Source: a virus (lineage: Duplodnaviria > Heunggongvirae > Uroviricota > Caudoviricetes). Taken from it: 64,000 nucleotides of DNA. The stretch spans positions 15,651 to 79,650 of the IMG/VR virus record IMGVR_UViG_2563366977_000001. One strand, written 5' to 3'. The translations under genes and the position numbers were made by a program. Each line of letters starts with the position of its first letter. Position 1 is the first letter of the stretch. Below, piece after piece: positions 3,535 through 61,068 of this stretch. Below the pieces are notes generated by a model. The model had not been told where the DNA came from. It saw only the letters and a program-made list of their open reading frames with translations, and searched no databases.

Positions 3535-4004
3535 GTAGAGGAAACATGAGTCACGCGAACCCATCGAAAACACAATATCGTTTAATGCTGGCTATCGCGT
3601 CAGCTATACCAACCAGCCTGAATCCACCCGCTGGCTATCCCGCTATTGTTGATGATTGTTTTCAGTATTACGGTGAAGACATCCTGAGTCAGTCTAAGGC
3701 ACTCAAACAGTTATGCAAGGCAGGCATTCTTCACTGCATAGGCGATCCAGATGATTTTGTAGTCATGCTGGCAGATCGTGACTCTTTTCTGCTGTCCTGG
3801 AAAGCCGGGGCGCGCGAAGCGCGTTTGGGTAATGGTATTGGCTACATCGACTATAGCGATTGTCCGCTGGCATTTGCTGGTGGATATATGCATTGGCATG
3901 AGCGAAATAGAGGCCGTCAGCGCCAGTATCGCTTGAGTGACTTTAACGTCTGTCACGGTTTCGAAGAAGCTGACAGCCAGGACATCTGGCTTCAGGAGCC
4001 TTAA
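3522..4004 (+). CDS. Hypothetical protein
   Basis: 160-aa ORF overlapping the previous ORF by 13 nt. Confidence 0.35.
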   Translation: METVSRGNMSHANPSKTQYRLMLAIASAIPTSLNPPAGYPAIVDDCFQYYGEDILSQSKALKQLCKAGILHCIGDPDDFVVMLADRDSFLLSWKAGAREARLGNGIGYIDYSDCPLAFAGGYMHWHERNRGRQRQYRLSDFNVCHGFEEADSQDIWLQEP

Positions 4005-5829: not shown

Positions 5830-6000
5830 CTCATATTTGTCTCTGATTTGTCTCAAACTGGTATCGTGGGCACATCATGTATCATCTAAGTCTCTTTTGT
5901 GTCTCTCTTGCGTCTCTAGTTTGATGCTTTTTACGCTATCTAACTTCTGGTCTTATTTTGTTTTCTCATATAAAATTCAATTCTTTCTCAAATGTGTCTC
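5830..6000. repeat. parC-like centromere: at least 6 GTCTC-containing iterons upstream of parM
   Basis: Repeated TTGTCTC / TGTGTCTC / GCGTCTC in AT-rich leader before ParM start. Confidence 0.45.
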
Positions 6001-6014
6001 AGAAGTGGAGCAAT

Positions 6015-6974
6015 ATGATGCGCATTTTTATCGACGATGGTTCTACCAATATCAAAATGCTGTGGGAACAAGACGGGGAAACTCGAACCCATATCTGTCC
6101 GAACAGTTTTAAACGTGGATGGTCCGCCACATTTGGCGCAGGAAAGCCGTTTAACTACATCATTGATGACGAAAAATATTCATATGACTTGATCTCGCCG
6201 GATGTGCTGCCGACGAATAACGTTGAATGGCAATACAGCCCGCTTAATGTGCTTGCTGTTCATCATGCCCTGCTTACAAGTGGCATTGAGCCTCAAGAAG
6301 TGGAAATAGTTGTCACGTTGCCACTGGCAGAGTTTTATGACGACGACGCACAATACAACATGAAAAATATTGAGCGGAAAAAGGCCAGCCTGATGCGACC
6401 AGTCACCCTTAACAAAGGTCAGGTTTTTACTATCAAAAAAGTGACTGTGCGCCCGGAGTCAATACCCGCAGGGATCGGTCTGTGCGACAGCCTTGTGCCA
6501 GCGCATTCTGTGCTTATTGTTGATCTTGGTGGGACTACTCTGGATGTGTCGATGGTCGCCGGGCAAATGACCGCCGTTTCTCGCGTATTTGGCGATTCTA
6601 ATCTCGGCGTTTCGCTGGTAACTAAAGAGGTCAGACAGGCACTTGCAAAAGCGAATACCGAAACCTCTAATTATAATGTCGATCAATTAATCATTAATCG
6701 TGATGATGAGGATTATTTGACCGACAATATTAACGATCCGTCTGCTATTGATGATGTTAAGAAAGCCATTTCGTCAAGCATAGAACGACTCCGTACACGC
6801 GTACTGGATGTGATCAGTGATTTCAAAGGATACACGCATGTTATGGTCATTGGTGGCGGCGCGCCGCTTGTTGCTGATGCTATCCGTGAGCAGGTAAACA
6901 TTCGTGACGATAGGTTTTTCGTTGCTGATGATCCACAACTTGCTCTTGTCTATGGTCTAAAATCTATCGGTTGA
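6015..6974 (+). CDS. parM: ParM/StbA actin-like plasmid segregation ATPase
   Basis: ORF trimmed to ATG 6015 with GTGGAG RBS; N-terminal IDDGSTNIK motif and DLGGTTLD phosphate-2 motif. Confidence 0.8.
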   Translation: MMRIFIDDGSTNIKMLWEQDGETRTHICPNSFKRGWSATFGAGKPFNYIIDDEKYSYDLISPDVLPTNNVEWQYSPLNVLAVHHALLTSGIEPQEVEIVVTLPLAEFYDDDAQYNMKNIERKKASLMRPVTLNKGQVFTIKKVTVRPESIPAGIGLCDSLVPAHSVLIVDLGGTTLDVSMVAGQMTAVSRVFGDSNLGVSLVTKEVRQALAKANTETSNYNVDQLIINRDDEDYLTDNINDPSAIDDVKKAISSSIERLRTRVLDVISDFKGYTHVMVIGGGAPLVADAIREQVNIRDDRFFVADDPQLALVYGLKSIG

Positions 6975-8692: not shown

Positions 8693-9727
8693 TTAATTAA
8701 GTGTGGCTATAATGTCGTTAGCTATCATTCGCGTTGATGCTTTACAGGATACAGAGCGACGGGATGGCATAGGATACACCTTGAAGCCATTGCCAACGTA
8801 AAGTTCGCGAATGTTAGGCGCACCACTGTTTGTTATCACAATTTTCGCTCCGCGTCTGTGGGCATCCACCAGCAGTGACACCAGCCGTTGTTGATCTTCA
8901 AACCTAAAGCTATGCCCTGAGTAATTTGTAAATCCGGTAGTGTCGGGCAATGGTTCATAGGGGGGATCGCAGAAAATCACATCATCATTCCCGGCAGCCT
9001 CAATTACACCAGCAAAATCGCCGGACACAAATTCCGAATACTTTGAAATATCGTCAGCCAGGAACGCCTCCATTTCCGCGAGAGGGAAGTGGGGTGATTT
9101 CTGCTTTCCATATCCGACGTTGAACTCTCCTTTACGGTTATAGCGAGTGACGCCATTAAAACAATGACGATTGAGATACAGGAACGCCGCTGCATGGTGA
9201 AGGGAATCATAAGCACCATTGTTGAATGCATTGCGAACATTCAAAAATGCATCAGCAGAGTTGTAATCCTGAAAAAAACGATATGCCAGTGTGATAAGAG
9301 AATGCCCTTCACGCTGCAATGTCTGATAGAAGTTAATCAGGTCATTATTGATATCGTTCAGCAGGTTGCTTTTAAATCCGGCATTAGTGAAAACAGCGCC
9401 ACCTCCAACGAAAGGTTCTATCAACCGTTTTCCGTGGGGCAGGTGTTCGAAGATAATGGGCAGTGCAGAAAATTTGCCGCCGACCCACTTAAAGACTGGG
9501 CGATCAAATTCGTCCTCCGAGCGAATACGTCGCATATGGCTGATAGTGGCTTCCGCCGCAGGACGATGATTGTCGCTATAAGAAATAAATTTAGCACCAA
9601 TATCAGCCACGGATTCCCTCCTTATTTGCTTCAAATACAGCTCTTGCAAAACCGTAAGGTGTCGCGCTACGAAAATTCGCTCTTTCAGGCCCTGGCGGTG
9701 CCTTGTGTATTCGGTTATCTGGATCAC
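8693..9727 (-). CDS. dam: Dam-type N6-adenine DNA methyltransferase
   Basis: FKWVGGK N-terminal motif, FVGGGAV SAM-binding motif, DPPY catalytic motif; alternative ATG at about 9535 would remove overlap with upstream ORF. Confidence 0.8.
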   Translation of the reverse strand: MIQITEYTRHRQGLKERIFVARHLTVLQELYLKQIRRESVADIGAKFISYSDNHRPAAEATISHMRRIRSEDEFDRPVFKWVGGKFSALPIIFEHLPHGKRLIEPFVGGGAVFTNAGFKSNLLNDINNDLINFYQTLQREGHSLITLAYRFFQDYNSADAFLNVRNAFNNGAYDSLHHAAAFLYLNRHCFNGVTRYNRKGEFNVGYGKQKSPHFPLAEMEAFLADDISKYSEFVSGDFAGVIEAAGNDDVIFCDPPYEPLPDTTGFTNYSGHSFRFEDQQRLVSLLVDAHRRGAKIVITNSGAPNIRELYVGNGFKVYPMPSRRSVSCKASTRMIANDIIATLN

Positions 9728-15377: not shown

Positions 15378-15738
15378 ATGAACATTAAACCTATCCGTAC
15401 AGAACAAGATTATGAGGCCGCACTGCGTGAAGTCGAACCGATGTTCGATAACGAACCGGAAATGAATACCCCGGAAGGTGATTTCTTTGAGGTCATGTGT
15501 CTTCTCATTGAGGAGTACGAGAAAAAACATTATTCCAATTGAGCCACCATCACCTATTGAAGCCATTAAGTTCCGTATGGAACAGCAAGGGCTGACCGTG
15601 AAGGATCTGGAACCGGCTATTGGTAAATCAAATCGTGTTTACGAGGTGCTAAATGGGACACGAAATTTGACGTTACCTATGATTCGCCGTTTACATTCCC
15701 AGTTTGGCATTCCTCTTGAAAGCCTAGTTGGTGTTTAA
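15378..15738 (+). pseudogene. Second HigA-like HTH antitoxin gene split by a 1-nt frameshift in an A6 tract
   Basis: ORFs 15357..15542 and 15478..15738 together resemble one HTH antitoxin; they differ by +1 frame at GAGAAAAAACATT (about 15521-15533). Confidence 0.45.
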
Positions 15739-41318: not shown

Positions 41319-42347
41319 TTATGAATCCATCAGGCGACTATTTGCACCAACGGATGCCCCGCTACGGCGCAAATATCGCATAAGTGTTTCGGGCTTTTTC
41401 CATGTGCCTTCCTGCATGATCTCGACCATTGACACCTGTTTCTCAGCCATATCAATTGCCGCACCAACACGCGCACTATGGCCTGTCCACGTCCGGTATC
41501 TTCCCTTGTTCGGCGTGGCATCTCGTTTGTTCAGCAACCCCCAGGCATCGCTGAATATTTTCTCCATTGCAGGTGCAGTAAGGGGCGTTGTCGTGATTCT
41601 GGCCTTATTACTGCGGTGTATTGGCGGGAATAGCACCGCGTCCGGATGTTCTCGAAGTCCGGACACCTCCAGCCAGTCGTTCAGTACGGCGGTAGTGTAA
41701 CGAGAAAGCACCTTATCAAGTCCGGCGGCGGTCGTGATGGTCTTCGTGTGTGAAATATGCAGCGTTACAGTGTCACCTGTTTGGTCCAGATCTCCGACGC
41801 GGATGCGCGAGATTTCTGACATACGCATCAGGGTATTGTATGCCACGAAGAGAAACGCCCGATTGCGCAGGTCCACCAGCCGCTCGGAACGGGAAAGCAA
41901 CACGTCGAGCAATTTCAGATCATCCCACCGCAACGGTATAGCCTGGCCTGTTCGCTCACCTTTTTCCGTTGCCGCTTCGCGCCGGATGCGCCGCATGGCC
42001 AGAGACACACTTTTATCGTCCGACAGCGGCGGGAGGCCACATTGCGAAAGCAGCATGTTAAGCATGGCATAGTGCTTATCAATGGTGGTCGAGGCCAGAT
42101 CGGCCTCATGCAACTGGAGAAGATACTCGCGGGCCATTTCCGGCGTAATCGGGAACCAGGGGTGCTGGCGCGAATTACACCACCGCGCCCAGGAATGAAA
42201 CACCAGACGGAGATCTCGAAGCGTATTTGGGGCATAAGCTCCCTGGTCGTTCATGAACTGCATAAAGTTTTTTGCAGCTTCCTGGTATTCGGTGCCTATA
42301 TCGCGCAGAAAACCACCAGAACCGCCGGAGATAACTAGTTCACCCAT
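41319..42347 (-). CDS. cre: Cre-family tyrosine site-specific recombinase (Dre-like)
   Basis: 342 aa; colinear with P1 Cre (SWARWC, LNML, RN.AFL..AYNTL, TKT, GHSARVGAA, C-terminal Tyr in RYLRR). Confidence 0.9.
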   Translation of the reverse strand: MGELVISGGSGGFLRDIGTEYQEAAKNFMQFMNDQGAYAPNTLRDLRLVFHSWARWCNSRQHPWFPITPEMAREYLLQLHEADLASTTIDKHYAMLNMLLSQCGLPPLSDDKSVSLAMRRIRREAATEKGERTGQAIPLRWDDLKLLDVLLSRSERLVDLRNRAFLFVAYNTLMRMSEISRIRVGDLDQTGDTVTLHISHTKTITTAAGLDKVLSRYTTAVLNDWLEVSGLREHPDAVLFPPIHRSNKARITTTPLTAPAMEKIFSDAWGLLNKRDATPNKGRYRTWTGHSARVGAAIDMAEKQVSMVEIMQEGTWKKPETLMRYLRRSGASVGANSRLMDS

Positions 42348-42499
42348 GAAACTATTAAACCTCTATATACAGATAACGCTACGTGAAAAATAGAAAACTG
42401 ACAGGGTAGTTATAAGTTAATTTTCAAAATTCAAGCCTTTGATTCGAGGCATGATTTTTCATCCTTGTCAATACTACCTGTTTACTGGAGATTATAGCC

Positions 42500-42531
42500 T
42501 AACTTTAAATAATGCCAATTATTTAAAGTTA
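42500..42531. other. lox-type recombination site (rox-like)
   Basis: TAACTTTAAATAATGCCAATTATTTAAAGTTA perfect palindrome; readable as 13-8-13 (arm CTAACTTTAAATA vs loxP ATAACTTCGTATA, 9/13); 150 bp upstream of recombinase. Confidence 0.8.
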
Positions 42532-42612
42532 GAAATCAGGACTTTTTTCCCAAAAAAAACACCGACCAGATCACTTCGCAAATCCGTCAGCCATGCGGTA
42601 GCTGTTCCTGGT

Positions 42613-43781: not shown

Positions 43782-43805
43782 AAGCCCCGAATCGCCGGGG
43801 CTTTT
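43782..43805. terminator. Bidirectional hairpin (GCCCCGAATCGCCGGGGC) between convergent genes
   Basis: Stem-loop followed by TTTTAAAT. Confidence 0.5.
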
Positions 43806-45312
43806 AAATGTCAATATCAGGAATATCCACTTCTGCCAACACCTGATCGCGGAATGTTGCGAGTTCTGCGCCAATGTCTTCATTAGCAGGCACGTAATCC
43901 ACCAGCATAGTGAAGCAGTAGGTATCCCATCTGTCCGGCGACTTGATGTTTAACTTCTGCCGCATGTGCTCCTTGCGCATCATCGCTACCTTCCCTTCTT
44001 CGTTAAGCATATACGGGATTTTTGATGCCTGATCTGCGGTTTTGGGGTCACTATCGATACGCATACGCCCTGATTTAATGGCATCCCCTGCCATAATATT
44101 GGCGTAAGCACGCTGATTGACAAAGCGTTCTCTGTCTCTTAGCGCAAACATAGGCTTACCCCAACGGATGCGAACGGGATTAGCACCACGGCGGACAAGC
44201 TGCGCACACGTATCTGAACCAAAGCCATCAGCATCCACAGCAATGGTGATGTTCGGGTATTTATCAGGAGTGCATTCGTTATAGATAAAGTCGGCAAAAG
44301 CCAACGGGTCCATAGTGCCTGGCATCTCCAGTATCTTAAAGTTCACAACGCGTCGTTTCTCACGATAACCGGATACTTTGCATATATTGAGCACCGATTT
44401 GTCGCGACCATTACCGACGTCAGCGGTCGCTACCCAGCCCCAATCTTTCTCCAGCAACACTTTACGCCGTGCGGCGCGGTCGCACTCATCACGACCAAGC
44501 AAATACCCGTTAATTGCACGCGGGAACTGGCCCAGCACCTTAACCATGTACTCCAGCGAATCCCTGCCGCCGTACTCCAGCAATTTCTCACGAATAAAGC
44601 TCGGTTCAACGAATGGAGATTCTTCAGAGTTAAGGACTATTGCCGTCCAGACTCCTTCCGGATTGCCTTCTGCCTTTGCCCTTGAATGGTGGGATTCATA
44701 AAAGTAACCGCTTGGACGCGTAGGCTGGGAAAGCATGAGCATACGGTTATCTTTCTGCGTTAACGCCCCCGTCATGACGTTAATCGCCTTATCGGATATG
44801 CCCGATGCTTCATCAAGGATTAGCAGTAAATGCTCCGCGTGCTCCCCCGCCAGTGCCTCTTCGTTACCGAGTCGATAACCTTTACAGAGCACTTCCCATA
44901 TCCCTTTACGGGAACGCTCATAAAACATGGTGTCAGACAGGACAAAATAGGTCTGTAACCAGCCGTGGCGCTTAACAGCATTCGCCCAAAACTGTTTCAC
45001 GTATTTGAATACGCCTGTTTTTACCTGGCCTATTTTGTTCGCAACAATAATGACGCGGGCGTCGGGGAACAGGATCATAAAAATTAGTAGCAACATCGCG
45101 GTAAGGGATGACTTACCCGTTCCGTGTCCGGACGTAACGGTCGTCCTGCTCCCCGTCTCCTGCACTGACTGAATGATCTGCTGCTGCTGATGGGAGGGGA
45201 ACATCCCAAAAATATCGACAACCGCCTGGGTAAAGTTGTATCGATACCTGATAACCATATCGCGCCAACGTGGATCACTGGTGACGCACTTAATCTTACG
45301 ACCACCAGCCAT
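43804..45312 (-). CDS. pacB: Terminase large subunit PacB
   Basis: 502 aa; Walker A TSGHGTGKS; directly downstream of pacA with 1-nt overlap. Confidence 0.85.
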   Translation of the reverse strand: MAGGRKIKCVTSDPRWRDMVIRYRYNFTQAVVDIFGMFPSHQQQQIIQSVQETGSRTTVTSGHGTGKSSLTAMLLLIFMILFPDARVIIVANKIGQVKTGVFKYVKQFWANAVKRHGWLQTYFVLSDTMFYERSRKGIWEVLCKGYRLGNEEALAGEHAEHLLLILDEASGISDKAINVMTGALTQKDNRMLMLSQPTRPSGYFYESHHSRAKAEGNPEGVWTAIVLNSEESPFVEPSFIREKLLEYGGRDSLEYMVKVLGQFPRAINGYLLGRDECDRAARRKVLLEKDWGWVATADVGNGRDKSVLNICKVSGYREKRRVVNFKILEMPGTMDPLAFADFIYNECTPDKYPNITIAVDADGFGSDTCAQLVRRGANPVRIRWGKPMFALRDRERFVNQRAYANIMAGDAIKSGRMRIDSDPKTADQASKIPYMLNEEGKVAMMRKEHMRQKLNIKSPDRWDTYCFTMLVDYVPANEDIGAELATFRDQVLAEVDIPDIDI

Positions 45313-46676
45313 TAGTCATCCTCCGGCTGGTCTATCACAATCTCGTCATCTACAGCATCAAAACCGGTATCCCCCGCGTCATAATCACCGTAGATATCAG
45401 CCGTGGCGGAAGGGTCTATATTCAGGTCTTCATCATTGGCCTCAAATTCACCGGCTTTACGTTCTCCGTTCCGGTCGTAATCCCCCATCCCAAGCCTATC
45501 AACGATTTTCGCTACTTCAGCCCGGCGTTGTGCAAGCCATTGTGGGAGTCCAGCTTGTTGCTCGGCAAACTGCTTCGCCTCTTTATCCAGTTGCTCATCA
45601 TCAACATCGTTAACGTCAGAAACCGGAGGCTCCAGAAGTGAGATCGCTTTTGCCGCTCGTGCCGCCAGGATAGCTGGGACACTGACGCCCTGCCGCTCGA
45701 TATATTCAGCTACGCCTATATCGTCCAGCTCCTCGCGCTCACGCATACGTATAGCGGCGGCGATAACCCTGGCGGCGCGTGCGTCAGCGCCAATGCGATA
45801 CTCAATCTCCTTGCCACGCTGCTCGGCCTGCAGGCGGGCAATCGCCAGTTTTTCTCTGGCCTCAGCCTCCCTGAATGCCTGCTGACGCGCGCCCTGCGCA
45901 AGTTTTTCATCCCCCTGGCGTAGCTTCTGCTCGGTCTGGTAGATGGCTGCCAACCTACTGATAAAGTCATTCATGTAGTAGGCCGCATCGCTTATTAGGC
46001 CGAGAAGACGCTGCCCTGGGTGCATCCCCTCTGGCTGTGTATCGCCGAGGGCGTCAATCTCTTCCTGTAGTCGCTCCGCTTCCTGGTCAACGATGGCCTG
46101 ATACTGAATTGCTCGTTCCTGCGCCATCTGTATCGCAAGTCGTAAATGTTCAGTCGCGCCGTTCTTCATCATCTCACGGGCGACGTTGGTGGCAGGCAAA
46201 GTGGCGCTTTGAGCTGATGAGTCAGGGATCATTTGCAATGATCCCTTGTTTCGTTGGGCTTTTTCGCTGCTTTTAGGGATCATTTCTCCCATTTCATCAC
46301 AAAATGATCCCTTCACATCCTTGTGTATCCTGTTGTTATTACTTGGTTTTTCTTTGTGATCCGCATTTTGTTTTTGCGGCATGGCGCGGAACTGTCCACC
46401 AGCTAACGATTTGTCAGTTTTTGTAAATTCTGTGCTTTTATCAGCCTTTTTTTGCTCTTTTTTTGAGCCGGTGGCGCTGCTTTTTGCGCGCTGTTTTGTA
46501 CTTTTCCCGGCAGCCTTAGCTTTCGCCTTAACCTCATTTTTTTTCATATTGAGATGCTTTCTGGCGGTGTTAAAGCTGAGGTCATGCTGCTCGCAATATT
46601 CTTTTATGGTGATCCCGGTTTCTTCTCTTAACTCCAGGAACTTAGCTCGATGCGCCTCCCAGTTAATTAACGTCAT
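45312..46676 (-). CDS. pacA: Terminase small subunit PacA (contains pac site)
   Basis: 454 aa; N-terminal HTH-like segment, K-rich linker, acidic C-terminus; GATC-rich pac repeats inside 5' part. Confidence 0.7.
   Translation of the reverse strand: MTLINWEAHRAKFLELREETGITIKEYCEQHDLSFNTARKHLNMKKNEVKAKAKAAGKSTKQRAKSSATGSKKEQKKADKSTEFTKTDKSLAGGQFRAMPQKQNADHKEKPSNNNRIHKDVKGSFCDEMGEMIPKSSEKAQRNKGSLQMIPDSSAQSATLPATNVAREMMKNGATEHLRLAIQMAQERAIQYQAIVDQEAERLQEEIDALGDTQPEGMHPGQRLLGLISDAAYYMNDFISRLAAIYQTEQKLRQGDEKLAQGARQQAFREAEAREKLAIARLQAEQRGKEIEYRIGADARAARVIAAAIRMREREELDDIGVAEYIERQGVSVPAILAARAAKAISLLEPPVSDVNDVDDEQLDKEAKQFAEQQAGLPQWLAQRRAEVAKIVDRLGMGDYDRNGERKAGEFEANDEDLNIDPSATADIYGDYDAGDTGFDAVDDEIVIDQPEDD
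46225..46373. other. Candidate pac packaging site: clustered GATC-containing octamers
   Basis: GGGATCAT / ATGATCCC at about 46225, 46238, 46276, 46304 plus GTGATCCG at 46366, inside the pacA 5' region. Confidence 0.55.
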
Positions 46677-47065
46677 AGGGAAGCCTCACGTTTTTTCACA
46701 GCGGCGTTCCATAGCTGGTTAGTCATCGCCACCAACTGACGCTGCTCCTTTCGTAATTGAGCTTCTATCTTTCGGTTGGTGTTTTTCACCAACAGCCGAC
46801 CGAATTCAGGAGTGCGCCCGCGCACCTTGAACTGGTATCCATTCAGGCCATGTAACCAATATTTCCGGGGGTATACGCGGTCGTCTATTTCGCAAATGGC
46901 ACGACTGGAACGAACAAAAAAACGTATGATGTTATTTACGTTTACGCGCGACACATGAAGGTGAGGATATTGTGCTTTTGCACGGCTGGTGATTTCGGTG
47001 ACCGTCAGATAGCAGTCAGCCCTGATCATGATATCCGCTATTTCGGCGCTACTGATTTGCTCCAT
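46673..47065 (-). CDS. Putative late promoter activator (P1 lpa / gene 10 position)
   Basis: 130-aa ORF immediately upstream of pacA, overlapping its start; called by synteny only. Confidence 0.4.
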   Translation of the reverse strand: MEQISSAEIADIMIRADCYLTVTEITSRAKAQYPHLHVSRVNVNNIIRFFVRSSRAICEIDDRVYPRKYWLHGLNGYQFKVRGRTPEFGRLLVKNTNRKIEAQLRKEQRQLVAMTNQLWNAAVKKREASL

Positions 47066-47172: not shown

Positions 47173-47556
47173 CTACCAGCGGGATAAACGAACAACATGC
47201 TTAACTTTTGCCTCCCACTTCCCTTTATGTTTGTTGATCACCGCCTGCGCCATCTTCAGACTGGCTTCAAAATCGGCTTTTCGACCACTATTGCCCACCA
47301 GCAACGCTCCGTCTATTTCGGGTAAGCATAAGTAATCCTGCTCGACGGTAAGCGGCATTGATGATGTAACCTGGCAGGCTTTCCATCTGAAGCGTATGCG
47401 CACACTCCTGACTGACATCACGACATAACCTGATATTGTGCTCTTGTGTCCGGCGTCTGTGCGTGTAGCCTTGCATGATGTTATCTTGCAGGTGATGATG
47501 TCCCAACCAATGTGCATCGCATCCTCAATGCGTAATTTAGTAGCCTCGTACATCAA
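47173..47556 (-). CDS. Hypothetical protein
   Basis: 127-aa ORF. Confidence 0.35.
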   Translation of the reverse strand: MMYEATKLRIEDAMHIGWDIITCKITSCKATRTDAGHKSTISGYVVMSVRSVRIRFRWKACQVTSSMPLTVEQDYLCLPEIDGALLVGNSGRKADFEASLKMAQAVINKHKGKWEAKVKHVVRLSRW

Positions 47557-48128
47557 AAAACCTCCCAGTCAGTAGCGATAATATCAACACCAGTTGCAAA
47601 CCAGTCTGTCTGCGCCTGTAAATCCCCATTCATCATTACCAGGCGAGGCATAACCATCACATCACAACCTTCAACAATATCGAATGCCTCTTCCGGCAGG
47701 AATTCGACGAGCTTTTCTTTGCTACCAACACTGCCACGGAGCATCGATATATAGCTCCCTTTAGGCCATGATGTTCGCCGGGCATCAAGCCCCTTCATCA
47801 TCCAGTAAAAGGCCGATGAGAACGGGATGTTCTTTTTGGCGATGAGCACGTTATTCGCTTCTGTGTACTTCAGGAACTTAACTAACCTTACCATCGACTC
47901 GGATAACGCAATGTACGGCTCGTGATTGATTGCTGACACACTTACGCCGTGCAGTCCAACACTTACCACTGTCATATCACCGTTCTGTGCGGTTTCGATG
48001 TTGACGCCTTTACGAACTAACGCTGCATAAAGCTCCTCGCGCTTTTGCGTCCAGCATTCTCGTCGCCCTATAAAGTCACTCAAAACGAGATCATCTTCTG
48101 AATACGCGTTATCGTTCGCCGTTAACAT
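47553..48128 (-). CDS. Hypothetical protein
   Basis: 191-aa ORF overlapping next gene by 4 nt. Confidence 0.35.
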   Translation of the reverse strand: MLTANDNAYSEDDLVLSDFIGRRECWTQKREELYAALVRKGVNIETAQNGDMTVVSVGLHGVSVSAINHEPYIALSESMVRLVKFLKYTEANNVLIAKKNIPFSSAFYWMMKGLDARRTSWPKGSYISMLRGSVGSKEKLVEFLPEEAFDIVEGCDVMVMPRLVMMNGDLQAQTDWFATGVDIIATDWEVF

Positions 48129-48582: not shown

Positions 48583-48658
48583 TGGTGGCCCCTACCGGAC
48601 TTGAACCGGTGACCGTGCGATTATGAGTCGCCCGCTCTAACCACTGAGCTAAAGGGCC
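48583..48658 (-). tRNA. tRNA with CAU anticodon, most similar to tRNA-Ile2 (lysidine) rather than tRNA-Met
   Basis: Hand-folded cloverleaf: acceptor GGCCCTT/AGGGGCC, anticodon arm GGCGA-CTCATAA-TCGC, T-loop GGTTCAAGTCC, 3' CCA. Confidence 0.75.
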
Positions 48659-49087
48659 AGATTACTGTTAATTACGCTTACGCTTTTTGCCAGAACCGCG
48701 TAAGGCTTTTGCCGCTTGCTCTACCCCGTATGCAACCACCAGCAGAAACAATAATGTCCACTCCGGGTTTTTATCGGCAAACGCCCAAAAATCCATCACT
48801 TGCAGCCACCTTTTAAGACAAAACGCCATTGCTGTTAGGTTGCGGTGCCGGGTGCCTCCCGGTGACGTTAACCAGTTAACAATTAACGCCGGATCACTTA
48901 TGGATTCTCGTTACGCCAGTAAAAAGACCACCTTTACTGTTTTAACTGTTCCGCGTGCGCTTAGCCGCATTCACCGCAATGGTAAGAGCATTTGGCTGAC
49001 TGGGCGGCGATGACGCCTGTACGCATTTGGTGATCCGGTTCTGCTTCCGGCATTCGCTTAATTAGCCAAATACTCTTAACGTTGCGA

Positions 49088-49174
49088 TGGCGGAGAGTAA
49101 TGGAATCGAACCATCATCGCTTGCGCGACGGGACGGTTTTCAAGACCGCTTGAGCACCATGCTCCCTACTCTCC
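49088..49174 (-). tRNA. tRNA-Ser (UGA anticodon), long variable arm
   Basis: Acceptor GGAGAGT/ACTCTCC, discriminator G, anticodon loop CTTGAAA, 17-nt variable arm, T-loop TTCGATT, CCA. Confidence 0.6.
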
Positions 49175-49415
49175 AGTGATTGTGGTGGTCGGTACTGATC
49201 TCCGACTGCGCCTCTTTTTTTCATAGCCCATAAGGCCGGTCAGTGCGCTTGATGACTGAGGCATCGATATTTACTACGCCGCCTCGTTGCCATAGGGCGG
49301 ACTTGCGCGCCAGCAACGCGCATTCACCACAACGGAAAGAGCATTTATGGCTCGCATCGCGGGAAAAAGCCCACGGTAGAGAGTCGAACTCTACAAATGC
49401 TCTTACCTGTTGTGT

Positions 49416-49491
49416 TGGTGCCGGTTAACGGGATCGAACCGCTGACCATTCGCTTACAAAGCGACTGCTCTACCAACTGAGCTAAACCGGC
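49416..49491 (-). tRNA. tRNA-Thr (UGU anticodon)
   Basis: Acceptor GCCGGTT/AACCGGC, D-arm AGCTCAGTTGGTAGAGC, anticodon loop TTTGTAA, T-loop GGTTCGATCC, CCA. Confidence 0.8.
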
Positions 49492-49495
49492 AATT

Positions 49496-49582
49496 TGGTG
49501 GGGAGTGATGGAGTCGAACCACCCGAGTCGCAATGACAGTAGATTTACAGTCTACACCGCTACCTCTACGGACTAACTCCCC
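49496..49582 (-). tRNA. tRNA-Tyr (GUA anticodon)
   Basis: Acceptor GGGGAGT/ACTCCCC, anticodon arm GTAGA-CTGTAAA-TCTAC, long variable arm, CCA. Confidence 0.8.
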
Positions 49583-49587
49583 TAAAT

Positions 49588-49662
49588 TGGCGATGGTGGG
49601 TGGATTCGAACCACCGACCAGTTGGTTAACAGCCAACTGCTCTACCGCTGAGCTACACCATC
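49588..49662 (-). tRNA. tRNA-Asn (GUU anticodon)
   Basis: Acceptor GATGGTG/CACCATC, anticodon arm GTTGG-CTGTTAA-CCAAC, T-loop GGTTCGAATCC, CCA. Confidence 0.85.
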
Positions 49663-54216: not shown

Positions 54217-57200
54217 TTAGGCCGCATCGGCGATTATTTTACGCAGTTCATCTACCGAGTAACGCGTAGATACCATCCATGCCGGACGGTCAAAGTTCAC
54301 ATCAGCAACCGGGTTTGCTTCAAAATTCCAGAAACGCCCGCCAATCTTCTTAATCGCGTCTTTGGCGTTCCGTATTGTCGAGGAACCTGGTTGGTCGGCA
54401 ATGAGATAAACCGCACCGACGTCCTCGCTGACGCTCCACCAGCGCCCGCGAACACGCGCCTTCGCGCGAATCGGCTTATCATTAACCACAATGATATAGT
54501 CATCATTCGCCGCTTCATCAGCTCTGGCTTCAGCCACTGCCGCCTGCTCTTCTCTTTTGCTTTCAGCCTGTTCAAGCCTTTCCGCGATCTCTGATTCGGT
54601 GGCCCCGCCGTTTTTCAGCGATACATAGTCTTGCCACGTTGCTGATTTGAGCGCATCCGGCAACTCATTCACATAGTCACCGTCTTTCAACTCACGGGCG
54701 CGGCGGGTAGCCATTTCTACCAGGCGATTAACAGAAACAGCATCAGCAAAATCGTCCTTACTAATGTGTTTTTCATCAAATGCATTGATGACAGCCCCCA
54801 CCTTAATCCACTGTGCTGCCGGTGATTCCAGGGGGTTATCAGCCTGGACAATGGCGAGTTTCGCTCCATCTACCCCATTATTCGCCAACTGTTCCAGTGC
54901 CGCCCATCCATCTGCATCACTGAGTGATTTATATTGCTCAAACAATGCATCGCGCCAGGCCGCCAGCGCAGAACGTGTTTTTTCGATCTTCGTCTTAATT
55001 TTCGCGATCTTGACCTGATTAAACATCCGTTCAATATCATCGATATTGCTAAAGGCTTTCATCCTGCCCTTGAATAAACGGTATGCCAGCACGGTCCTCC
55101 AGAATGATTCCAGACCTTCTCCGGACGGTTTGCGGAACAAGCTAAGAATATCTTCAGAAGTGACTTTATTAAGCGAACGACCTGACAGACCACGCCCAGC
55201 CATCCAGTTTTCGAACTCCTGGGCAACATCATCCATCGTTGCCTGTGCGCCCCATGCCTGCATTCCCTGGATGTAATCATACCCATACAATGCCTGGAGG
55301 AATCCCTCACCGTCCACGATATTCAGCGGGTTATCACTGGCTTGTATTTTTGCCACTTCACGCTTCAGCGCCTCATCGTTGCCATCTGGATATATCCATC
55401 GTTCAGGTACTATATCCGATGCTCGCCCGATTTTTTGGCCTATCACGCCATCATAGGCCGATGACAGCGCGATCTGACCATCATCTGTGCGATATGCCCA
55501 GTATTTAATAGCTGACCCACCGCCCCATGCATTACCAGGTTTACCAGCAATAACATTCATTACCCCATTGCGAATAGCATCATAGAACTGATCGCGAGTA
55601 AGTATTGTTGATAGCTGGTGGCACTGAACACCACGCGCAGCCGTTGCGCGCGATTCAGCTACCCCCTCTTCAAAAGTTACCGCTTCAATCACAGAGTCAA
55701 ACGGCAATGTAACGATTGACCCCGGTGATCGAGCGTAACGACTTGCTCTATCCAGCCAGGCGATACGGCAGAGGTATTGTGCTTTTTCACCGTCAATTTT
55801 TTCCACCCGGACAATCGCTGTTGTTTCGCGATCATCAATGACTGCACGGTAATAACTACCTTTATGCAACAGGATATTCTTGTCAGTGCGCATATATTCC
55901 TGTGGGTTCTGAATAACATCGATACTGATATCCAGCACACCAGACTTAATAGCGCGCTCCACATCACCACGAGAGCGTTTCATTATGGTATCCGCGTCTT
56001 TTGCCCTGGTGATCGCAAACCGCAGCACCCGCGCACGTTTTCTGTAGCTACTCAACTGCTCAAGCGCGAATTTTTGCCCATTCCTGTTCGTACCCGCTTT
56101 TATCAGGTCGTCAAGATTTCGCTGGTAATACTCTATCTGTTCCATCGCGCTTTTCAGTTCTGTCTCCATCATGCCGATATCTTTTCCAGCGGCGTTTGCC
56201 GCTTTCAGGTAGATATCGAGAGCATTGTTGGCCTCGCGCTGTGCTTTCAGTTTCAGACGTTCTTCACGCTCTTGCGCCTGGCGAGCCATGATTGCGCGGC
56301 GTTCTTCCGGGTTTGCCGCCAGCATAATGGCGCGTTCATCAGCATCATCCGCATCACCATTGGCGATCTCTGACATGTCGGAGGTCATCACCATCTTGAT
56401 CCAGTCTTTCTTACGTTTCAGCGTATCCAGACGGAAGTCGTCGAATGTGCCTTTGCCACAATAGTAGTGAACATTGACCTTCTCTTGCGGTGAACCTACG
56501 CGCGCACCGCGCCCATTTCGTTGGTCGATACTGGCTGGTGTCCAGGGTAGTGTCAGGTGGTGGATATCGGTTGTCCCGATATGCAGGTTAATACCTACTT
56601 CAGCCTTCTTGTTACAGATAATGATGCGCGTGCGCCCTTCGTTATAGTCGGCGGCAATGCCTTCCATACCCTCAAGGCCAGCATCATTTTTAGCTGAGAG
56701 ATAATCCTCATATTGGGCAAGTTTGCTGTAGTAGGTTTCCCATGCCCCTTCTTTGTATTCACCGTTTTTATTCGGAGTAGGTTCAGTCGGCTTATTCACC
56801 TTCTTCAGCTTGATGCCGCCAGCCTGGCTAACGGTCGTCGCATTGATAATGCCTATCTCCTGCTCCGGCATTTGCAGTGCACTGGCGATAATACGGCGCA
56901 GCTTCTGGTGCTGGGCTTTTTCATCAATGAAGACAATTTGTTTACCGTTCTTCAGACCTTCACGAAGGTTTTCGATCAGCGCGGCATACTTCGGCGGGAT
57001 GGGGTGTGATACCTGCTGCAGATCAATCCCGGCGGCAGCAATGGCCTTCAGTATTTCAGCTTCCAGTTCAATGCTGGCACGTATTTCAACATGCGCCGGA
57101 TGTTCACTAAAGGTGGTCTTCACTACCTTACTGGTGCGCGTACTAACCAGCCCACCAGCGCCGTCTTCTTCGGCCTCGTCTGCATCATCTGCCACTTTAC

Positions 57201-60200
57201 CGCCAGCTACTTTTGGCAGGGCATCAGCAATAGCTTTTACCTTGTCTGCAAGCTCAACGGGGAACTGGAATGTAATCGCACTGGCATACAGATCCGGATC
57301 TATAGCAACCTTATCCATGTCGCGGATGATGGAGAAGATGAAATCATCCGGTTTTTCGTTTGTGATATGCCCGTTTTCATCAACCGTCAGCGCATCTTTA
57401 CTACTTAACTCCTGTGCACGCTTACGAAGCTCTTCATAAGCAGCCTCCTGCTCCCCTGTCATCGGGATCTGCAAGGTATTCTCGACAATATCAGGGATTT
57501 TAACCGTCGCCCCGACGTCCGCAGCAGTCTTCAGAGTAGTCCAGCGATGGAAAATACCACGCAGGCCATCAAGGTTCTGGAAGCCAACCAGCCCCTGCTT
57601 CTCTTCCACTTCCCCGGAAATTTTCTGGACCTGAACTGTGGCTGTTTTACCAAACACACGAACGAAATCATCAGGCGTAATGATGCCCATGCGCATCCAC
57701 TCTTCCTGCGGAATGACAGTAGACAGCATGTTGAAGGCATCAATCGGACTGTTCACCAGCGGTGTTGCCGTCAGCATGACTACACCACGCCCGTTGTTGC
57801 GTTTCATCATGTACGCAGCTTTTACAGCCATGTCGCGGGCCATCTTGGATACTGCCGGGTTAGGCAAATATGCCAGTTGTCCCGCTTCACGCCCGGCATT
57901 AAAGGAGTTGCGGTAGTTATGCCCCTCGTCGGCAATCACGCTATCGAAGTTCATATCCTCAAAGTACGGGATATTCTGCTTCTTCGTTGTACCGGTATTC
58001 GCGGCCTGATCCTTAATCTTGTTCTTCTTCTGCGCATCACGGTGTTTACCAGACGCCAGGTCAAGACGCCCCATTTCCACAGCATTAAAGACAGCTTGCT
58101 GTGAGTTCTCCTCGATGGTTTTTTCTCGTAGCGGGATAGACGCGAATTGTTCTTTTGTCATGATGACCGTTCGCCAATTTGACGACGGGATCATGTTCAT
58201 GCGCTGAACGATAACGGCGCTGGCGGACTCTTTCACAACATTTCTGGTAAGAGGCTGCCCGTTACTGTCGAGGCGTGGTTCGCCATTTTCATCAAGCACC
58301 GGCGCGGTCAGAATATTTCCGCTGTCATCACGAACTTCATCCAAACCGATAAACATCATATTGGCGAAGGCATCAGCACTGTAGAAACTCTGTGCCTCGT
58401 GATACCAGTTCTGATAAACCGCCTTCGGAACAACAATACACGTGCGTTTAGTGCGACCTGTTTCGAAGTTATACGCCTCAAGCGCAAGCGCGGTCGTGGT
58501 TTTACCCAGCCCGGTACCAAATCCCATGATGCCGCGCCCATCTTCTGACAAGCGACGAACTTCTTCATTCTGATAAGTCAGAGGAATGCGCTTTCCACTA
58601 ATCCCTTCCAGGCCAAGCGGTGCGTTAGAGTGCGTGAACGGAATGAAGCCATTGAATGCGTCGTTATAGTCACGGGCTATCTGATCCGCCTGCGGGTGGG
58701 TGCGTAACCAGTCGTTAAAGCTAACTTCCAGTTGAGCAATTTTATCCAGGTACTCGTTAGCGTTCTGCCCACGCGGTTTAACACCGTTCAGGTAGTTTTC
58801 TAACTGGTTCAGGAAGCCGTCTTTATTGTTGGCCTTCTTGAACTCATTCCCGTTTTTGCCGTTTACGGTTCGTAGTTGATAGCCGGTAAATACCCCGTCC
58901 TTACCTTCGTAATCGTCCGGAGATACCAGAATGCCATCGACGACCTTCAGATCAGGTTCAGTGTACTTAAACTCGTCATAGCCCTGCTCTGCCAGGAACT
59001 CTTTTATCAAGCGGCGATCCAGCCAGCGGGCGTTCAGATTAACGGTGACTTTATTTAGTGGCGTGAAAATGCGTTTCTCTTCGATTTTCGCCAACTGACG
59101 CTCAAAGTTCGCTTTCTGTTCACCTGTTGACGCATCACGCCAGCCCACCAGCAATGTTGTTTTGGTTGCAATATCGCCGCTGGTGGCGCGGTCCATCGGC
59201 AGCAGGCAGCCATACCCATCAATAGCGATATCATCAAATTTCGCCAGGTATTCAAGGGCCGCGTCGTCGTCCTCTGGCAGTTCACCAGCAAACGCCTCAC
59301 GAAAGTCGCCCAGCGTTATAGGATTAAGGGCTACATCACTGAAAAGATGTGCTATCACTTGTTCCGGACGTGTAAAGTCAATACCGGCAGCACCATCCGT
59401 TACATCAAGTCGCCCTGCCAGAAGGTCAGAAGTGGAACCATCCTGTTTCACATTGCCAGTGAACGTCATCCAGTTTTTAGCGCCAGCTTCAGCAAGCCCA
59501 TTCAGCTTAATCGCGTGCGGTGGTCCATACTTCGCAACTTCTGCTGCCGCCAGGCGGGATGCATCTGCCAGTTTGTCATCAACGTTCACCCCCAGGTTAC
59601 GCAAATCAAGTGCCTTGTTGATCAACTGCCCTATCAACGCACCGCGCATAACGCGCTCCCTGTCTTTTTCTCGCTGTTTGCCAGCAAAGCGAATCATTGC
59701 TGCCACTTCATCACTGACAACCGATGGATAGTCGGACGCGATCGCCGATATCTGGTCCCATGACAAAGCCAGAATCCCGTTTGTTGACTGGAATGCGATC
59801 TGCAGATCGCCAAACGTCGAAACACCATATCGACTTACATCAAGCGCGGAGGATTTGGTTGTCGTGTCCTTAACCCATTTCAGGCCATCAAACTCATGCC
59901 AGATACCGCCTACAAGACGCTTATCCCCTACTTTTGCGCCCTGCCATGCCTGGGTAGTTACTCCGAGCAAATCCCAATTAATACGGCTTTCAAAGCGGCG
60001 TGATAACGCGGTTTTCATCGACTCATTGGATACACGACCGTCCTTTTTCACCACCAGGGTATTGCGGAAGCTGGTGCGTTCCATGTCGCCGTAAACAAAT
60101 CGCTTCCCTTCGGTTGTAAACCATTTCCCTTTGAGGAAGGTATCCCAAAGGACGTTTGCCGATTTGAGCGTTGCATCATCCGTGTCGGGGATCATCTCCA

Positions 60201-61068
60201 GGAAGGTTTCCGGGTGTTTACGCAATACCCATACGTCCACCACGGTATCTGTACCGGACTCGCTGAACGTACCAGAAGGCATACGATGCGCGCCCAAAAA
60301 TTCCGCTTTACGGCTGACTTTATCGCGCAATTTTTTGTATTTCGTACCATCGGTCATGCCATTCGGCACCACCAATACAATTAGTCCACCAGGCTTAACC
60401 TTGTCGATCGTGCGCAGCACAAAATAATTGCCAACGTTCTTCTCGTTTGCATATGCCGGATCAAGCCCGGCGACGCCGGAACGCCCTTCGCCAAACGGTA
60501 CGTTACCAACTGCGTGGTCATACATTGCATCTTTCGCCGCCAGCGCCTCAAACGCCCCGATATTCACATCATCTTCCGGGTGCAAAAGCTGGTTTATTCG
60601 ACCGGAGATCGGAGACAGTTCGGCGCTGGTCATTATCATGCCCTGCCGTTTTGTCTCCTGGAAAATACCTGTGCCTGCTGACGGTTCCAGTACGTGACCG
60701 CTATCAATACCGTAGTCGCCGAAGAGATCCCATATACCTTCTGCCATAAACTGTGGCGTATAGTATTCGTATTGGCTGCCCTCACCATCTGTCAGGCCGC
60801 CTTCACCGGTATACCCGGCAAGAATCTGGCGCTGTTCGTCAGTTAATTTCGCCCCATCGAAGCCAGGCGGAAGGGAATTAAGAAGATTTACTGCGGCGTT
60901 GTTTGCTGCCCGGCGTGTTTTCTGAATACTGACGCCATCGACTTTCTTAACGCCAAAGGTCACTACAGCTCGCGGTTTATGCAACCGACTAACAATTTCA
61001 ATCAGCGCCCCAATGCTGGTGGCCTGGCTAATTGAATCAATTATTTTGTCCAAAGGAAGCCCCCTCAA
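54217..61068 (-). CDS. darB: DarB-like giant methyltransferase-helicase (capsid-packaged anti-restriction protein in P1)
   Basis: 2283 aa; N-terminal MTase motifs (LEPSAGTGIF, NVPF), central helicase Walker A GFGTGLGKTT and DEGH box. Confidence 0.85.
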   Translation of the reverse strand: MRGLPLDKIIDSISQATSIGALIEIVSRLHKPRAVVTFGVKKVDGVSIQKTRRAANNAAVNLLNSLPPGFDGAKLTDEQRQILAGYTGEGGLTDGEGSQYEYYTPQFMAEGIWDLFGDYGIDSGHVLEPSAGTGIFQETKRQGMIMTSAELSPISGRINQLLHPEDDVNIGAFEALAAKDAMYDHAVGNVPFGEGRSGVAGLDPAYANEKNVGNYFVLRTIDKVKPGGLIVLVVPNGMTDGTKYKKLRDKVSRKAEFLGAHRMPSGTFSESGTDTVVDVWVLRKHPETFLEMIPDTDDATLKSANVLWDTFLKGKWFTTEGKRFVYGDMERTSFRNTLVVKKDGRVSNESMKTALSRRFESRINWDLLGVTTQAWQGAKVGDKRLVGGIWHEFDGLKWVKDTTTKSSALDVSRYGVSTFGDLQIAFQSTNGILALSWDQISAIASDYPSVVSDEVAAMIRFAGKQREKDRERVMRGALIGQLINKALDLRNLGVNVDDKLADASRLAAAEVAKYGPPHAIKLNGLAEAGAKNWMTFTGNVKQDGSTSDLLAGRLDVTDGAAGIDFTRPEQVIAHLFSDVALNPITLGDFREAFAGELPEDDDAALEYLAKFDDIAIDGYGCLLPMDRATSGDIATKTTLLVGWRDASTGEQKANFERQLAKIEEKRIFTPLNKVTVNLNARWLDRRLIKEFLAEQGYDEFKYTEPDLKVVDGILVSPDDYEGKDGVFTGYQLRTVNGKNGNEFKKANNKDGFLNQLENYLNGVKPRGQNANEYLDKIAQLEVSFNDWLRTHPQADQIARDYNDAFNGFIPFTHSNAPLGLEGISGKRIPLTYQNEEVRRLSEDGRGIMGFGTGLGKTTTALALEAYNFETGRTKRTCIVVPKAVYQNWYHEAQSFYSADAFANMMFIGLDEVRDDSGNILTAPVLDENGEPRLDSNGQPLTRNVVKESASAVIVQRMNMIPSSNWRTVIMTKEQFASIPLREKTIEENSQQAVFNAVEMGRLDLASGKHRDAQKKNKIKDQAANTGTTKKQNIPYFEDMNFDSVIADEGHNYRNSFNAGREAGQLAYLPNPAVSKMARDMAVKAAYMMKRNNGRGVVMLTATPLVNSPIDAFNMLSTVIPQEEWMRMGIITPDDFVRVFGKTATVQVQKISGEVEEKQGLVGFQNLDGLRGIFHRWTTLKTAADVGATVKIPDIVENTLQIPMTGEQEAAYEELRKRAQELSSKDALTVDENGHITNEKPDDFIFSIIRDMDKVAIDPDLYASAITFQFPVELADKVKAIADALPKVAGGKVADDADEAEEDGAGGLVSTRTSKVVKTTFSEHPAHVEIRASIELEAEILKAIAAAGIDLQQVSHPIPPKYAALIENLREGLKNGKQIVFIDEKAQHQKLRRIIASALQMPEQEIGIINATTVSQAGGIKLKKVNKPTEPTPNKNGEYKEGAWETYYSKLAQYEDYLSAKNDAGLEGMEGIAADYNEGRTRIIICNKKAEVGINLHIGTTDIHHLTLPWTPASIDQRNGRGARVGSPQEKVNVHYYCGKGTFDDFRLDTLKRKKDWIKMVMTSDMSEIANGDADDADERAIMLAANPEERRAIMARQAQEREERLKLKAQREANNALDIYLKAANAAGKDIGMMETELKSAMEQIEYYQRNLDDLIKAGTNRNGQKFALEQLSSYRKRARVLRFAITRAKDADTIMKRSRGDVERAIKSGVLDISIDVIQNPQEYMRTDKNILLHKGSYYRAVIDDRETTAIVRVEKIDGEKAQYLCRIAWLDRASRYARSPGSIVTLPFDSVIEAVTFEEGVAESRATAARGVQCHQLSTILTRDQFYDAIRNGVMNVIAGKPGNAWGGGSAIKYWAYRTDDGQIALSSAYDGVIGQKIGRASDIVPERWIYPDGNDEALKREVAKIQASDNPLNIVDGEGFLQALYGYDYIQGMQAWGAQATMDDVAQEFENWMAGRGLSGRSLNKVTSEDILSLFRKPSGEGLESFWRTVLAYRLFKGRMKAFSNIDDIERMFNQVKIAKIKTKIEKTRSALAAWRDALFEQYKSLSDADGWAALEQLANNGVDGAKLAIVQADNPLESPAAQWIKVGAVINAFDEKHISKDDFADAVSVNRLVEMATRRARELKDGDYVNELPDALKSATWQDYVSLKNGGATESEIAERLEQAESKREEQAAVAEARADEAANDDYIIVVNDKPIRAKARVRGRWWSVSEDVGAVYLIADQPGSSTIRNAKDAIKKIGGRFWNFEANPVADVNFDRPAWMVSTRYSVDELRKIIADAA

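Follow-up and report, generated by a model that had tools for sequence, protein, structure and literature searches.

Five conserved GATC sites inside pacA as the probable packaging site of a D6-like phage-plasmid

Introduction

Where does a phage-plasmid of the D6 type start to package its DNA? The question is raised by a stretch of 64 kb, called here the window (positions 15,651 to 79,650 of the IMG/VR virus record IMGVR_UViG_2563366977_000001), which carries a pacA gene with a cluster of five GATC-containing sites inside its coding sequence. The pac site of phage P1 is the textbook example of a methylation-gated packaging signal and underlies P1 transduction, PAC (P1-derived artificial chromosome) cloning vectors and P1 phagemids; it is reportedly known through the work of Sternberg and Coulby and of Skorupski et al. 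The headful phages P22, SPP1 and Sf6 have their pac site inside the gene of the small terminase, which is the recognition subunit, and the site of the window is likewise embedded in a recognition-subunit gene. To our knowledge, the pac sites of these three phages are not GATC arrays, and we know of no gating by adenine methylation in them.

A survey of phage-plasmids described the D6-like subgroup as having pacB homologs only (PMC7969092). No description of a D6-type pac site was found in full-text literature, in which an earlier description may still exist. The cluster in the window is probably the pac site of a D6-like phage-plasmid, that is, the signal that the pacase recognizes and cuts to start headful packaging. 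An earlier note on this DNA had proposed a pac site analogous to that of P1, and this reading is supported by the gene context, the position within the gene, the TGATC core, the conservation of the sites in the DNA, the enrichment of GATC in related genes and the presence of a Dam-family methylase in the element itself. That the site would be gated by methylation is held with lower confidence than its identity as a pac site.

The cluster of GATC sites in pacA

Coordinates are those of the window, in which pacA lies on the minus strand, and pacA nucleotides are counted from its start codon. The cluster is made up of the following features.

46224..46363, no strand assigned: candidate pac region with five GATC sites, pacA nucleotides 314-453, codons 106-150
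46356..46363, plus strand: site 1, GTGATCCG, in pacA sense CGGATCAC; GATC at pacA nucleotide 316, phase 0, Asp-His
46302..46312, plus strand: site 2, AAATGATCCCT, in pacA sense AGGGATCATTT; GATC at pacA nucleotide 368, phase 1, Gly/Arg-Ser
46275..46285, plus strand: site 3, AGGGATCATTT, in pacA sense AAATGATCCCT; GATC at pacA nucleotide 396, phase 2, Met-Ile-Pro
46237..46246, plus strand: site 4, AATGATCCCT, in pacA sense AGGGATCATT; GATC at pacA nucleotide 434, phase 1
46224..46233, plus strand: site 5, AGGGATCATT, in pacA sense AATGATCCCT; GATC at pacA nucleotide 447, phase 2, Met-Ile-Pro
46313..46355, no strand assigned: A-rich spacer of 43 bp between site 1 and site 2, a speculative cleavage interval, with the clade-invariant ATAACA and the sequence TAACAACAGGATA, which resembles a site of the integration host factor (IHF) with 2 mismatches

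The repeat unit is a 10-11-mer, AGGGATCATT(T) or (A)AATGATCCCT, which is present in four exact copies. The motif GGGATCAT is found at 46225 (plus), 46238 (minus), 46276 (plus) and 46304 (minus), and GTGATCCG at 46356 (plus), in agreement with the earlier note, which had described four motif copies in two inverted pairs and one extra GTGATCCG near them. The copies are real, and the true repeat is longer than that note gave. Its placement of the cluster in about 150 bp of pacA also holds, except that these belong to the first third of the gene and not to its extreme 5' end.

Both inverted repeats are perfect. One pairs 46224-46233 with 46237-46246 over a spacer of 3 nucleotides, and the other pairs 46275-46285 with 46302-46312 over a spacer of 16. 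The single GTGATCCG is 45 bp away from the repeats. From site 1 to site 5 the GATC spacings are 52, 28, 38 and 13 bp, which gives a 1+2+2 layout within 140 bp, and the orientations relative to pacA are reverse, reverse, forward, reverse and forward. All five sites have a TGATC core on one of the strands and all five have C as the sixth base; the orientation of the sites matters because the resulting hexamer, TGATCC, is not palindromic. The exact 10-mer AATGATCCCT occurs four times in the 64 kb, always in the cluster, against 0.12 copies expected. The window has 226 GATC in total, and the cluster is the densest group of them, with 5 in 150 bp against at most 3 in other 150-bp windows.

Conservation of the sites in the D6 clade

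Four lineages were compared, namely the window, D6, a plasmid of Shigella dysenteriae and a plasmid of Escherichia fergusonii, together with a set of 31 D6-clade sequences, which are IMG/VR sequences, plasmids and D6 itself. GATC is found at the same five pacA positions (nucleotides 316, 368, 396, 434 and 447) in all four lineages. In the encoded linker of PacA, residues 49-165, 39% of the amino acids are identical in the window and D6, and the domains on either side reach 79-89%. Over pacA nucleotides 145-480, 44% of the columns are invariant in the four lineages, compared with 20 of 20 for the GATC columns. Wholly invariant 4-mers make up 11% of this region, and the estimated chance for five is 1.7e-5. 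It has seven invariant runs of at least 6 nucleotides, four of which are CGGATCA, GATCATT, AAATGATCCC and AATGATCCC; the spacer sequence ATAACA, at pacA nucleotides 338-343, is also a clade-invariant run.

All five GATC are kept in 29 of the 31 D6-clade sequences. At site 1, all four lineages have an unchanged CGGATCA. Site 2 keeps GATC in 30 of the 31 sequences despite a codon change from GGA to AGA, which replaces glycine by arginine. At site 3, AAATGATCCC is invariant in the four lineages and lost in one of the 31 sequences. Site 4 has an invariant GATC with variable flanks (GGGATCTT in D6 and AGATCATC in Shigella), and at site 5 AATGATCCC is invariant in all 31 sequences and in an Enterobacter homolog. 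The motif stands in three different phases relative to the codons, encoding Asp-His, Gly/Arg-Ser and Met-Ile-Pro, and a shuffle of synonymous codons in the pacA of the window gives P=0.004 for at least five GATC in the zone. The constraint on the cluster appears to act at the level of the DNA. In the complete genome of D6, which has 325 GATC, the pacA cluster at 3715-3849 is the densest one, and the runner-up has 4 GATC in 142 bp.

GATC sites in other pacA genes of the family

The pacA genes that lie upstream of PacB homologs were gathered from plasmids and, for each species, from a single genome, which gave 17 genes from P1, the D6 clade, Enterobacter, Citrobacter, Leclercia, Pantoea, Serratia and Xenorhabdus. 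All lineages found belong to the Enterobacterales, which have Dam. The linker sequences cannot be aligned between lineages, and GATC density over the 17 genes is 19.5 per kb in nucleotides 140-480, against 3.4 per kb elsewhere in pacA, a value close to the genome background. A GATC-rich zone at these nucleotides and a well conserved PacB are common to the window and the other P1- and D6-related plasmid prophages, which differ from the window in being mostly bipartite, with P1-like TGATCA sites.

Most lineages have a bipartite layout like that of P1 (4|3). It is 5|3 in Serratia, 3|2 in Xenorhabdus and 2-3|1-2 in Citrobacter and Leclercia. Pantoea and Enterobacter BRE11 have six TGATCA at pacA nucleotides 154-214 with an exact period of 12 bp, which encode (S/G/H/N)-D-H repeats, and later sites at nucleotide 237 and then at one or two further positions (363, 379), of which Pantoea has two. 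The homolog of Enterobacter JBIWA008, which is 53% identical, combines three P1-like sites at nucleotides 157-181 with five D6-like sites at 380-471, one of which stands in a reading phase unlike that of the D6 clade. Among the D6-like, Citrobacter, Leclercia and Pantoea elements, PacB is 78-92% identical and PacA 31-34%. A conserved PacB with divergent PacA proteins and GATC layouts is the pattern expected if PacA and its site co-evolve.

Two further observations concern these genes. In the Pantoea, Enterobacter BRE11 and Citrobacter NCU1 loci, which belong to elements without an adjacent lpa gene, paired palindromic motifs with GATC (GTGATCATTAATGTGATCAC) precede the start codon of pacA by about 70 bp; they are possibly a methylation-sensitive promoter or operator. 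Xenorhabdus szentirmaii has no full-length pacA open reading frame upstream of pacB, and the longest one, of 242 codons, covers the C-terminal part only, so its pacA may be disrupted or misassembled.

Gene neighbourhood and comparison with P1 and D6

The genes and the recombination site that give the cluster its context are listed below.

45312..46676, minus strand: pacA, recognition (small-terminase-like) subunit of the pacase, 454 amino acids, 1365 nucleotides, phrog_1711
43804..45312, minus strand: pacB, large terminase/nuclease subunit, by homology with P1 PacB and phrog_2
46673..47065, minus strand: lpa, late promoter activator, Pfam BPP1_LPA (E=3.7e-50), directly upstream of pacA and overlapping it
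42499..42532, no strand assigned: rox-like recombination site, CTAACTTTAAATAAT-N4-ATTATTTAAAGTTAG, a perfect 15-bp inverted repeat with a 4-nucleotide spacer
41319..42347, minus strand: Dre-like tyrosine recombinase, 94% identical to Dre, adjoining the rox-like site
8693..9727, minus strand: Dam-family N6-adenine DNA methyltransferase with a DPPY motif, PF02086 and TIGR00571

The profile of phrog_1711 covers PacA of the window in full length (residues 4-448, E=1.9e-167), and P1 PacA belongs to this family as well (E=4.2e-202). It is 74% identical to PacA of D6 and 20% identical to PacA of P1 (pairwise BLASTP E=3e-8). A tblastn search with PacA against the phage collection did not recover P1 at E<=1e-5; the evidence for homology with P1 PacA comes from pairwise BLAST and from PHROG. 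PacB is 56% identical to P1 PacB over 488 amino acids and matches the terminase large subunit family phrog_2 (E=4e-41), with a weak match to Pfam Terminase_6N. An AlphaFold2 model of PacA, built from the single sequence, has a helical N-terminal domain (residues 6-63), followed by residues 65-166 without secondary structure and with pLDDT (predicted local distance difference test) values below 50; it is of low confidence overall (predicted template modelling score 0.27) and was used solely for the lack of predicted structure in the linker.

The gene order of the window, lpa-pacA-pacB-c1-rox-dre, matches that of P1, lpa-pacA-pacB-c1-lox-cre, and the open reading frame after pacB has the size of c1 and lies on the opposite strand. 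The arms of the rox-like site, CTAACTTTAAATAAT and ATTATTTAAAGTTAG, are presumably those of rox. Read in the direction of pacA, the site follows the cluster at a distance of 3.8 kb, just as lox in P1 is a tyrosine-recombinase site about 4 kb downstream of pac. Matches to pacA were found in 110 plasmid records, 7 of them at 95-99% identity and 103 of the D6 type at about 77%. The plasmid NZ_CP099353.1, for example, is 98% identical to the window. Judged by its gene content, its gene order and these plasmid matches, the window is part of a D6-like phage-plasmid.

The methylase at 8693-9727 (minus strand) is identified by its matches to PF02086 (E=2e-53) and to the TIGR00571 dam model, which it reaches with 231 bits over a cut-off of 115, and its best matches in the PDB are E. 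coli Dam and DpnM, both of which are GATC enzymes. The window shares with P1 the coding of an own adenine methylase, and D6 also has a dmt-like adenine methylase in its annotation. Such an enzyme fits gating by methylation in the manner of P1.

The P1 pac site spans 161 bp inside pacA and has seven Dam-site hexamers TGATCA/G (HEX4 and HEX3), which form two groups (4|3) with an IHF site and the cut between them, and methylation promotes its cleavage (PMC10028697). Synonymous recoding of these sites has been carried out in P1 (PMC10028697). The GenBank record of P1 places pac cleavage at pacA nucleotides 276-285, beside the IHF site. The hexamers of P1 occupy pacA nucleotides 195-229 and 325-348, and the sites of the window nucleotides 316-450. 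Like P1 pac, the cluster of the window is found in the first third of pacA, between lpa and pacB, and has multiple Dam sites with a TGATC core within the coding sequence of the variable PacA linker. It differs from P1 in that its sites stand in both orientations, as two inverted pairs and a single site.

Phage D6 (MF356679 / AY753669) has the same five GATC positions, gene order and rox arms as the window, besides the closely similar Dre. The four sites that are perfect 10-11-mer copies in the window have degenerate flanks in D6 (GAGATCATT, GGGATCTT), and the window is of a sub-lineage with a PacA 74% identical to that of D6.

The window carries other genes as well. The 191-amino-acid protein encoded at 47553-48128 (minus strand) has a C-terminal Tad2-like (Thoeris anti-defence 2) domain (PF11195, E=4e-10), and homologous proteins of related plasmids carry the annotation 'MW1434 family type I TA system toxin'. 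At 48583-49662 (minus strand) there are five tRNA genes (Met, Ser-UGA, Thr, Tyr and Asn), and the D6 record annotates three (Ser, Thr and Asn) in the equivalent position. An open reading frame of 2283 amino acids at 54217-61068 (minus strand) has the size of DarB, and D6 has in its annotation a darB-like gene (D6_15) whose size is similar; a ParM/StbA-type partition ATPase is encoded at 5958-6974 (plus strand); these last two are consistent with a D6-like plasmid-prophage backbone.

Evidence against a pac site and alternative explanations

In the isolate assembly IMG 2537562191, a D6-type plasmid breaks at pacA nucleotides 320-329, which correspond to 46348-46357 of the window. One contig ends in ...CGGATCATGAAAATAA and the next one starts with ATGAAAATAATGC..., with an overlap of 10 nucleotides, ATGAAAATAA, immediately 3' of the first GATC. 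The break could be a physical DNA end or a coincidence; it is a single anecdote, seen in 1 of about 29 assemblies, which is too few cases to count as evidence and at most a hint in favour of a cut at this place.

Several observations weigh against a pac site at this place. P1 has palindromic TGATCA/G hexamers, and the hexamer of the window is TGATCC, extended to AATGATCC(CT), which departs from the strict P1 hexamer. In P1 about 90 bp of spacer separate four hexamers from three, and the window has a single cluster of 140 bp. The earlier note was correct that motif and symmetry are unlike those of P1. The D6 clade, to which the window belongs, has no left-hand hexamer cluster (nucleotides 145-260) of the kind that P1, Pantoea, Serratia, Xenorhabdus and Enterobacter JBIWA008 possess. 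The IHF consensus WATCAANNNNTTR is absent from 46200-46450 at up to one mismatch, and the IHF-like sequence in the spacer was seen by inspection only. In the three GenBank records of D6, rox and cix are annotated by homology with P1, and pac is not. Two natural D6-type variants each lack one GATC, at nucleotide 368 in one and at nucleotide 396 in the other, by a change of GATC to GACC in both cases. Contig ends fall in the cluster in 0 of 9 metagenome contigs, a small sample. Finally, random placement of the 226 GATC of the window puts at least five of them in some 150-bp window in 33% of trials. The bare GATC count is therefore not significant by itself, and the case for a pac site rests on the other evidence. 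Because the hexamer, the layout and the IHF site differ, the cluster is not classed as a strict P1 pac site; it is most likely a variant that works like one.

The count just given, by which five GATC in 150 bp are expected in about a third of 64-kb sequences, would also suit a cluster that arose by chance or by a recent local duplication and has no function. This is hardly credible, given four exact 10-mers where 0.12 are expected, sites that are conserved across lineages differing at 33-40% of nucleotides, and a GATC enrichment that is family-wide. The inverted repeats could otherwise act as RNA or DNA hairpins, for instance as a cruciform or as an intrinsic terminator in antisense, rather than as methylation sites recognized by a protein. 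A terminator-like stem-loop with a T-rich tail is called on the plus strand at 46224-46246, and folding of the single-stranded DNA gives two hairpins with z=-3.9. Both arise because the motif copies are oppositely oriented, from which palindromy follows automatically, and no plus-strand gene needs a terminator at the cluster. The stems are only 6-7 bp in D6 and in the Shigella and E. fergusonii lineages, where GATC is conserved and pairing is not, which makes the hairpin account very unlikely.

A more substantial alternative is that PacA requires a peptide repeat (Gly-Ser...Met-Ile-Pro, twice) and that the DNA motif is its by-product. Both the D6 clade and the Enterobacter homolog indeed have two conserved copies of Met-Ile-Pro, each preceded by G/R-S. 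An explanation purely at the peptide level is argued against by the invariance of GATC itself, by the reading of its core in three phases as unrelated amino acids, by the Gly to Arg replacements, which retain the GA of GATC through the rare codons GGA and AGA, and by the P value of the synonymous shuffle. In addition, synonymous third positions (ATC, TCA) are fixed in a surrounding linker of about 60% nucleotide identity, the region is predicted to be unstructured, and other lineages put GATC in different peptides, such as the DH repeats with the 12-bp period. A by-product of the peptide is thus unlikely. It is also rather unlikely, though an alternative to be reckoned with, that the GATC element is functional and is not the start of packaging, for example a Dam/SeqA-sensitive site that times the expression of pacA and pacB or sequesters new copies, with the true pac elsewhere. 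Clusters of GATC are generally known to regulate or sequester in enterobacteria, and the missing bipartite layout and IHF site, as well as the lack of a pac annotation inside pacA in the D6 records, would be in keeping with such a site. On the other side, a scan of both strands in and around the cluster gave no sigma-70-like promoter, the position of the cluster in a homologous gene matches that of P1 pac, all lineages examined show the GATC enrichment in this zone of pacA specifically, and the D6 genome has no denser GATC cluster elsewhere.

Proposed start of packaging and its significance

If the cluster is the pac site, late in infection PacA would bind the TGATC sites through its N-terminal helical DNA-binding domain, and PacB would act as the nuclease and ATPase of the pacase. 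The methylation of GATC, by the host Dam and by the Dam-family enzyme of the element, would control the cutting of a bound site. Cleavage would take place within the cluster or next to it, possibly in the A-rich spacer that separates sites 1 and 2. Packaging would proceed by way of pacB and c1 in the direction of rox, and the terminally redundant part of the first headful would thereby include rox and allow Dre-mediated circularization. We infer binding, cleavage, dependence on methylation, the position of the cut and the direction of packaging by analogy with P1.

A broader proposal, which falls somewhat short of probable, is that PacA and the GATC array form a fast co-evolving recognition pair on a conserved PacB motor, and that the D6 clade may have replaced the bipartite palindromic TGATCA code of P1 by one array of asymmetric AATGATCC sites, arranged as inverted pairs, and lost the requirement for IHF. 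If this is true, the D6 clade has a methylation-gated packaging specificity that is orthogonal to that of P1.

E. coli and Salmonella commonly carry D6-like phage-plasmids, as the plasmid records with a pacA match indicate. A packaging site of this kind is unsurprising in itself; the finding is of value for the comparative series and because an experiment can now readily be designed. The two natural variants that have lost a GATC could serve as natural tests of the number of sites needed. A defined D6 pac site would allow the mapping of packaging and of transduction potential, as well as D6-based phagemids orthogonal to those of P1. It would also allow a comparative test of co-evolution between a small-terminase-like protein and its methylated site. 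If the broader proposal is true, the layouts of Pantoea, Serratia, Xenorhabdus and Enterobacter would be a natural series of orthogonal pac and pacase pairs.

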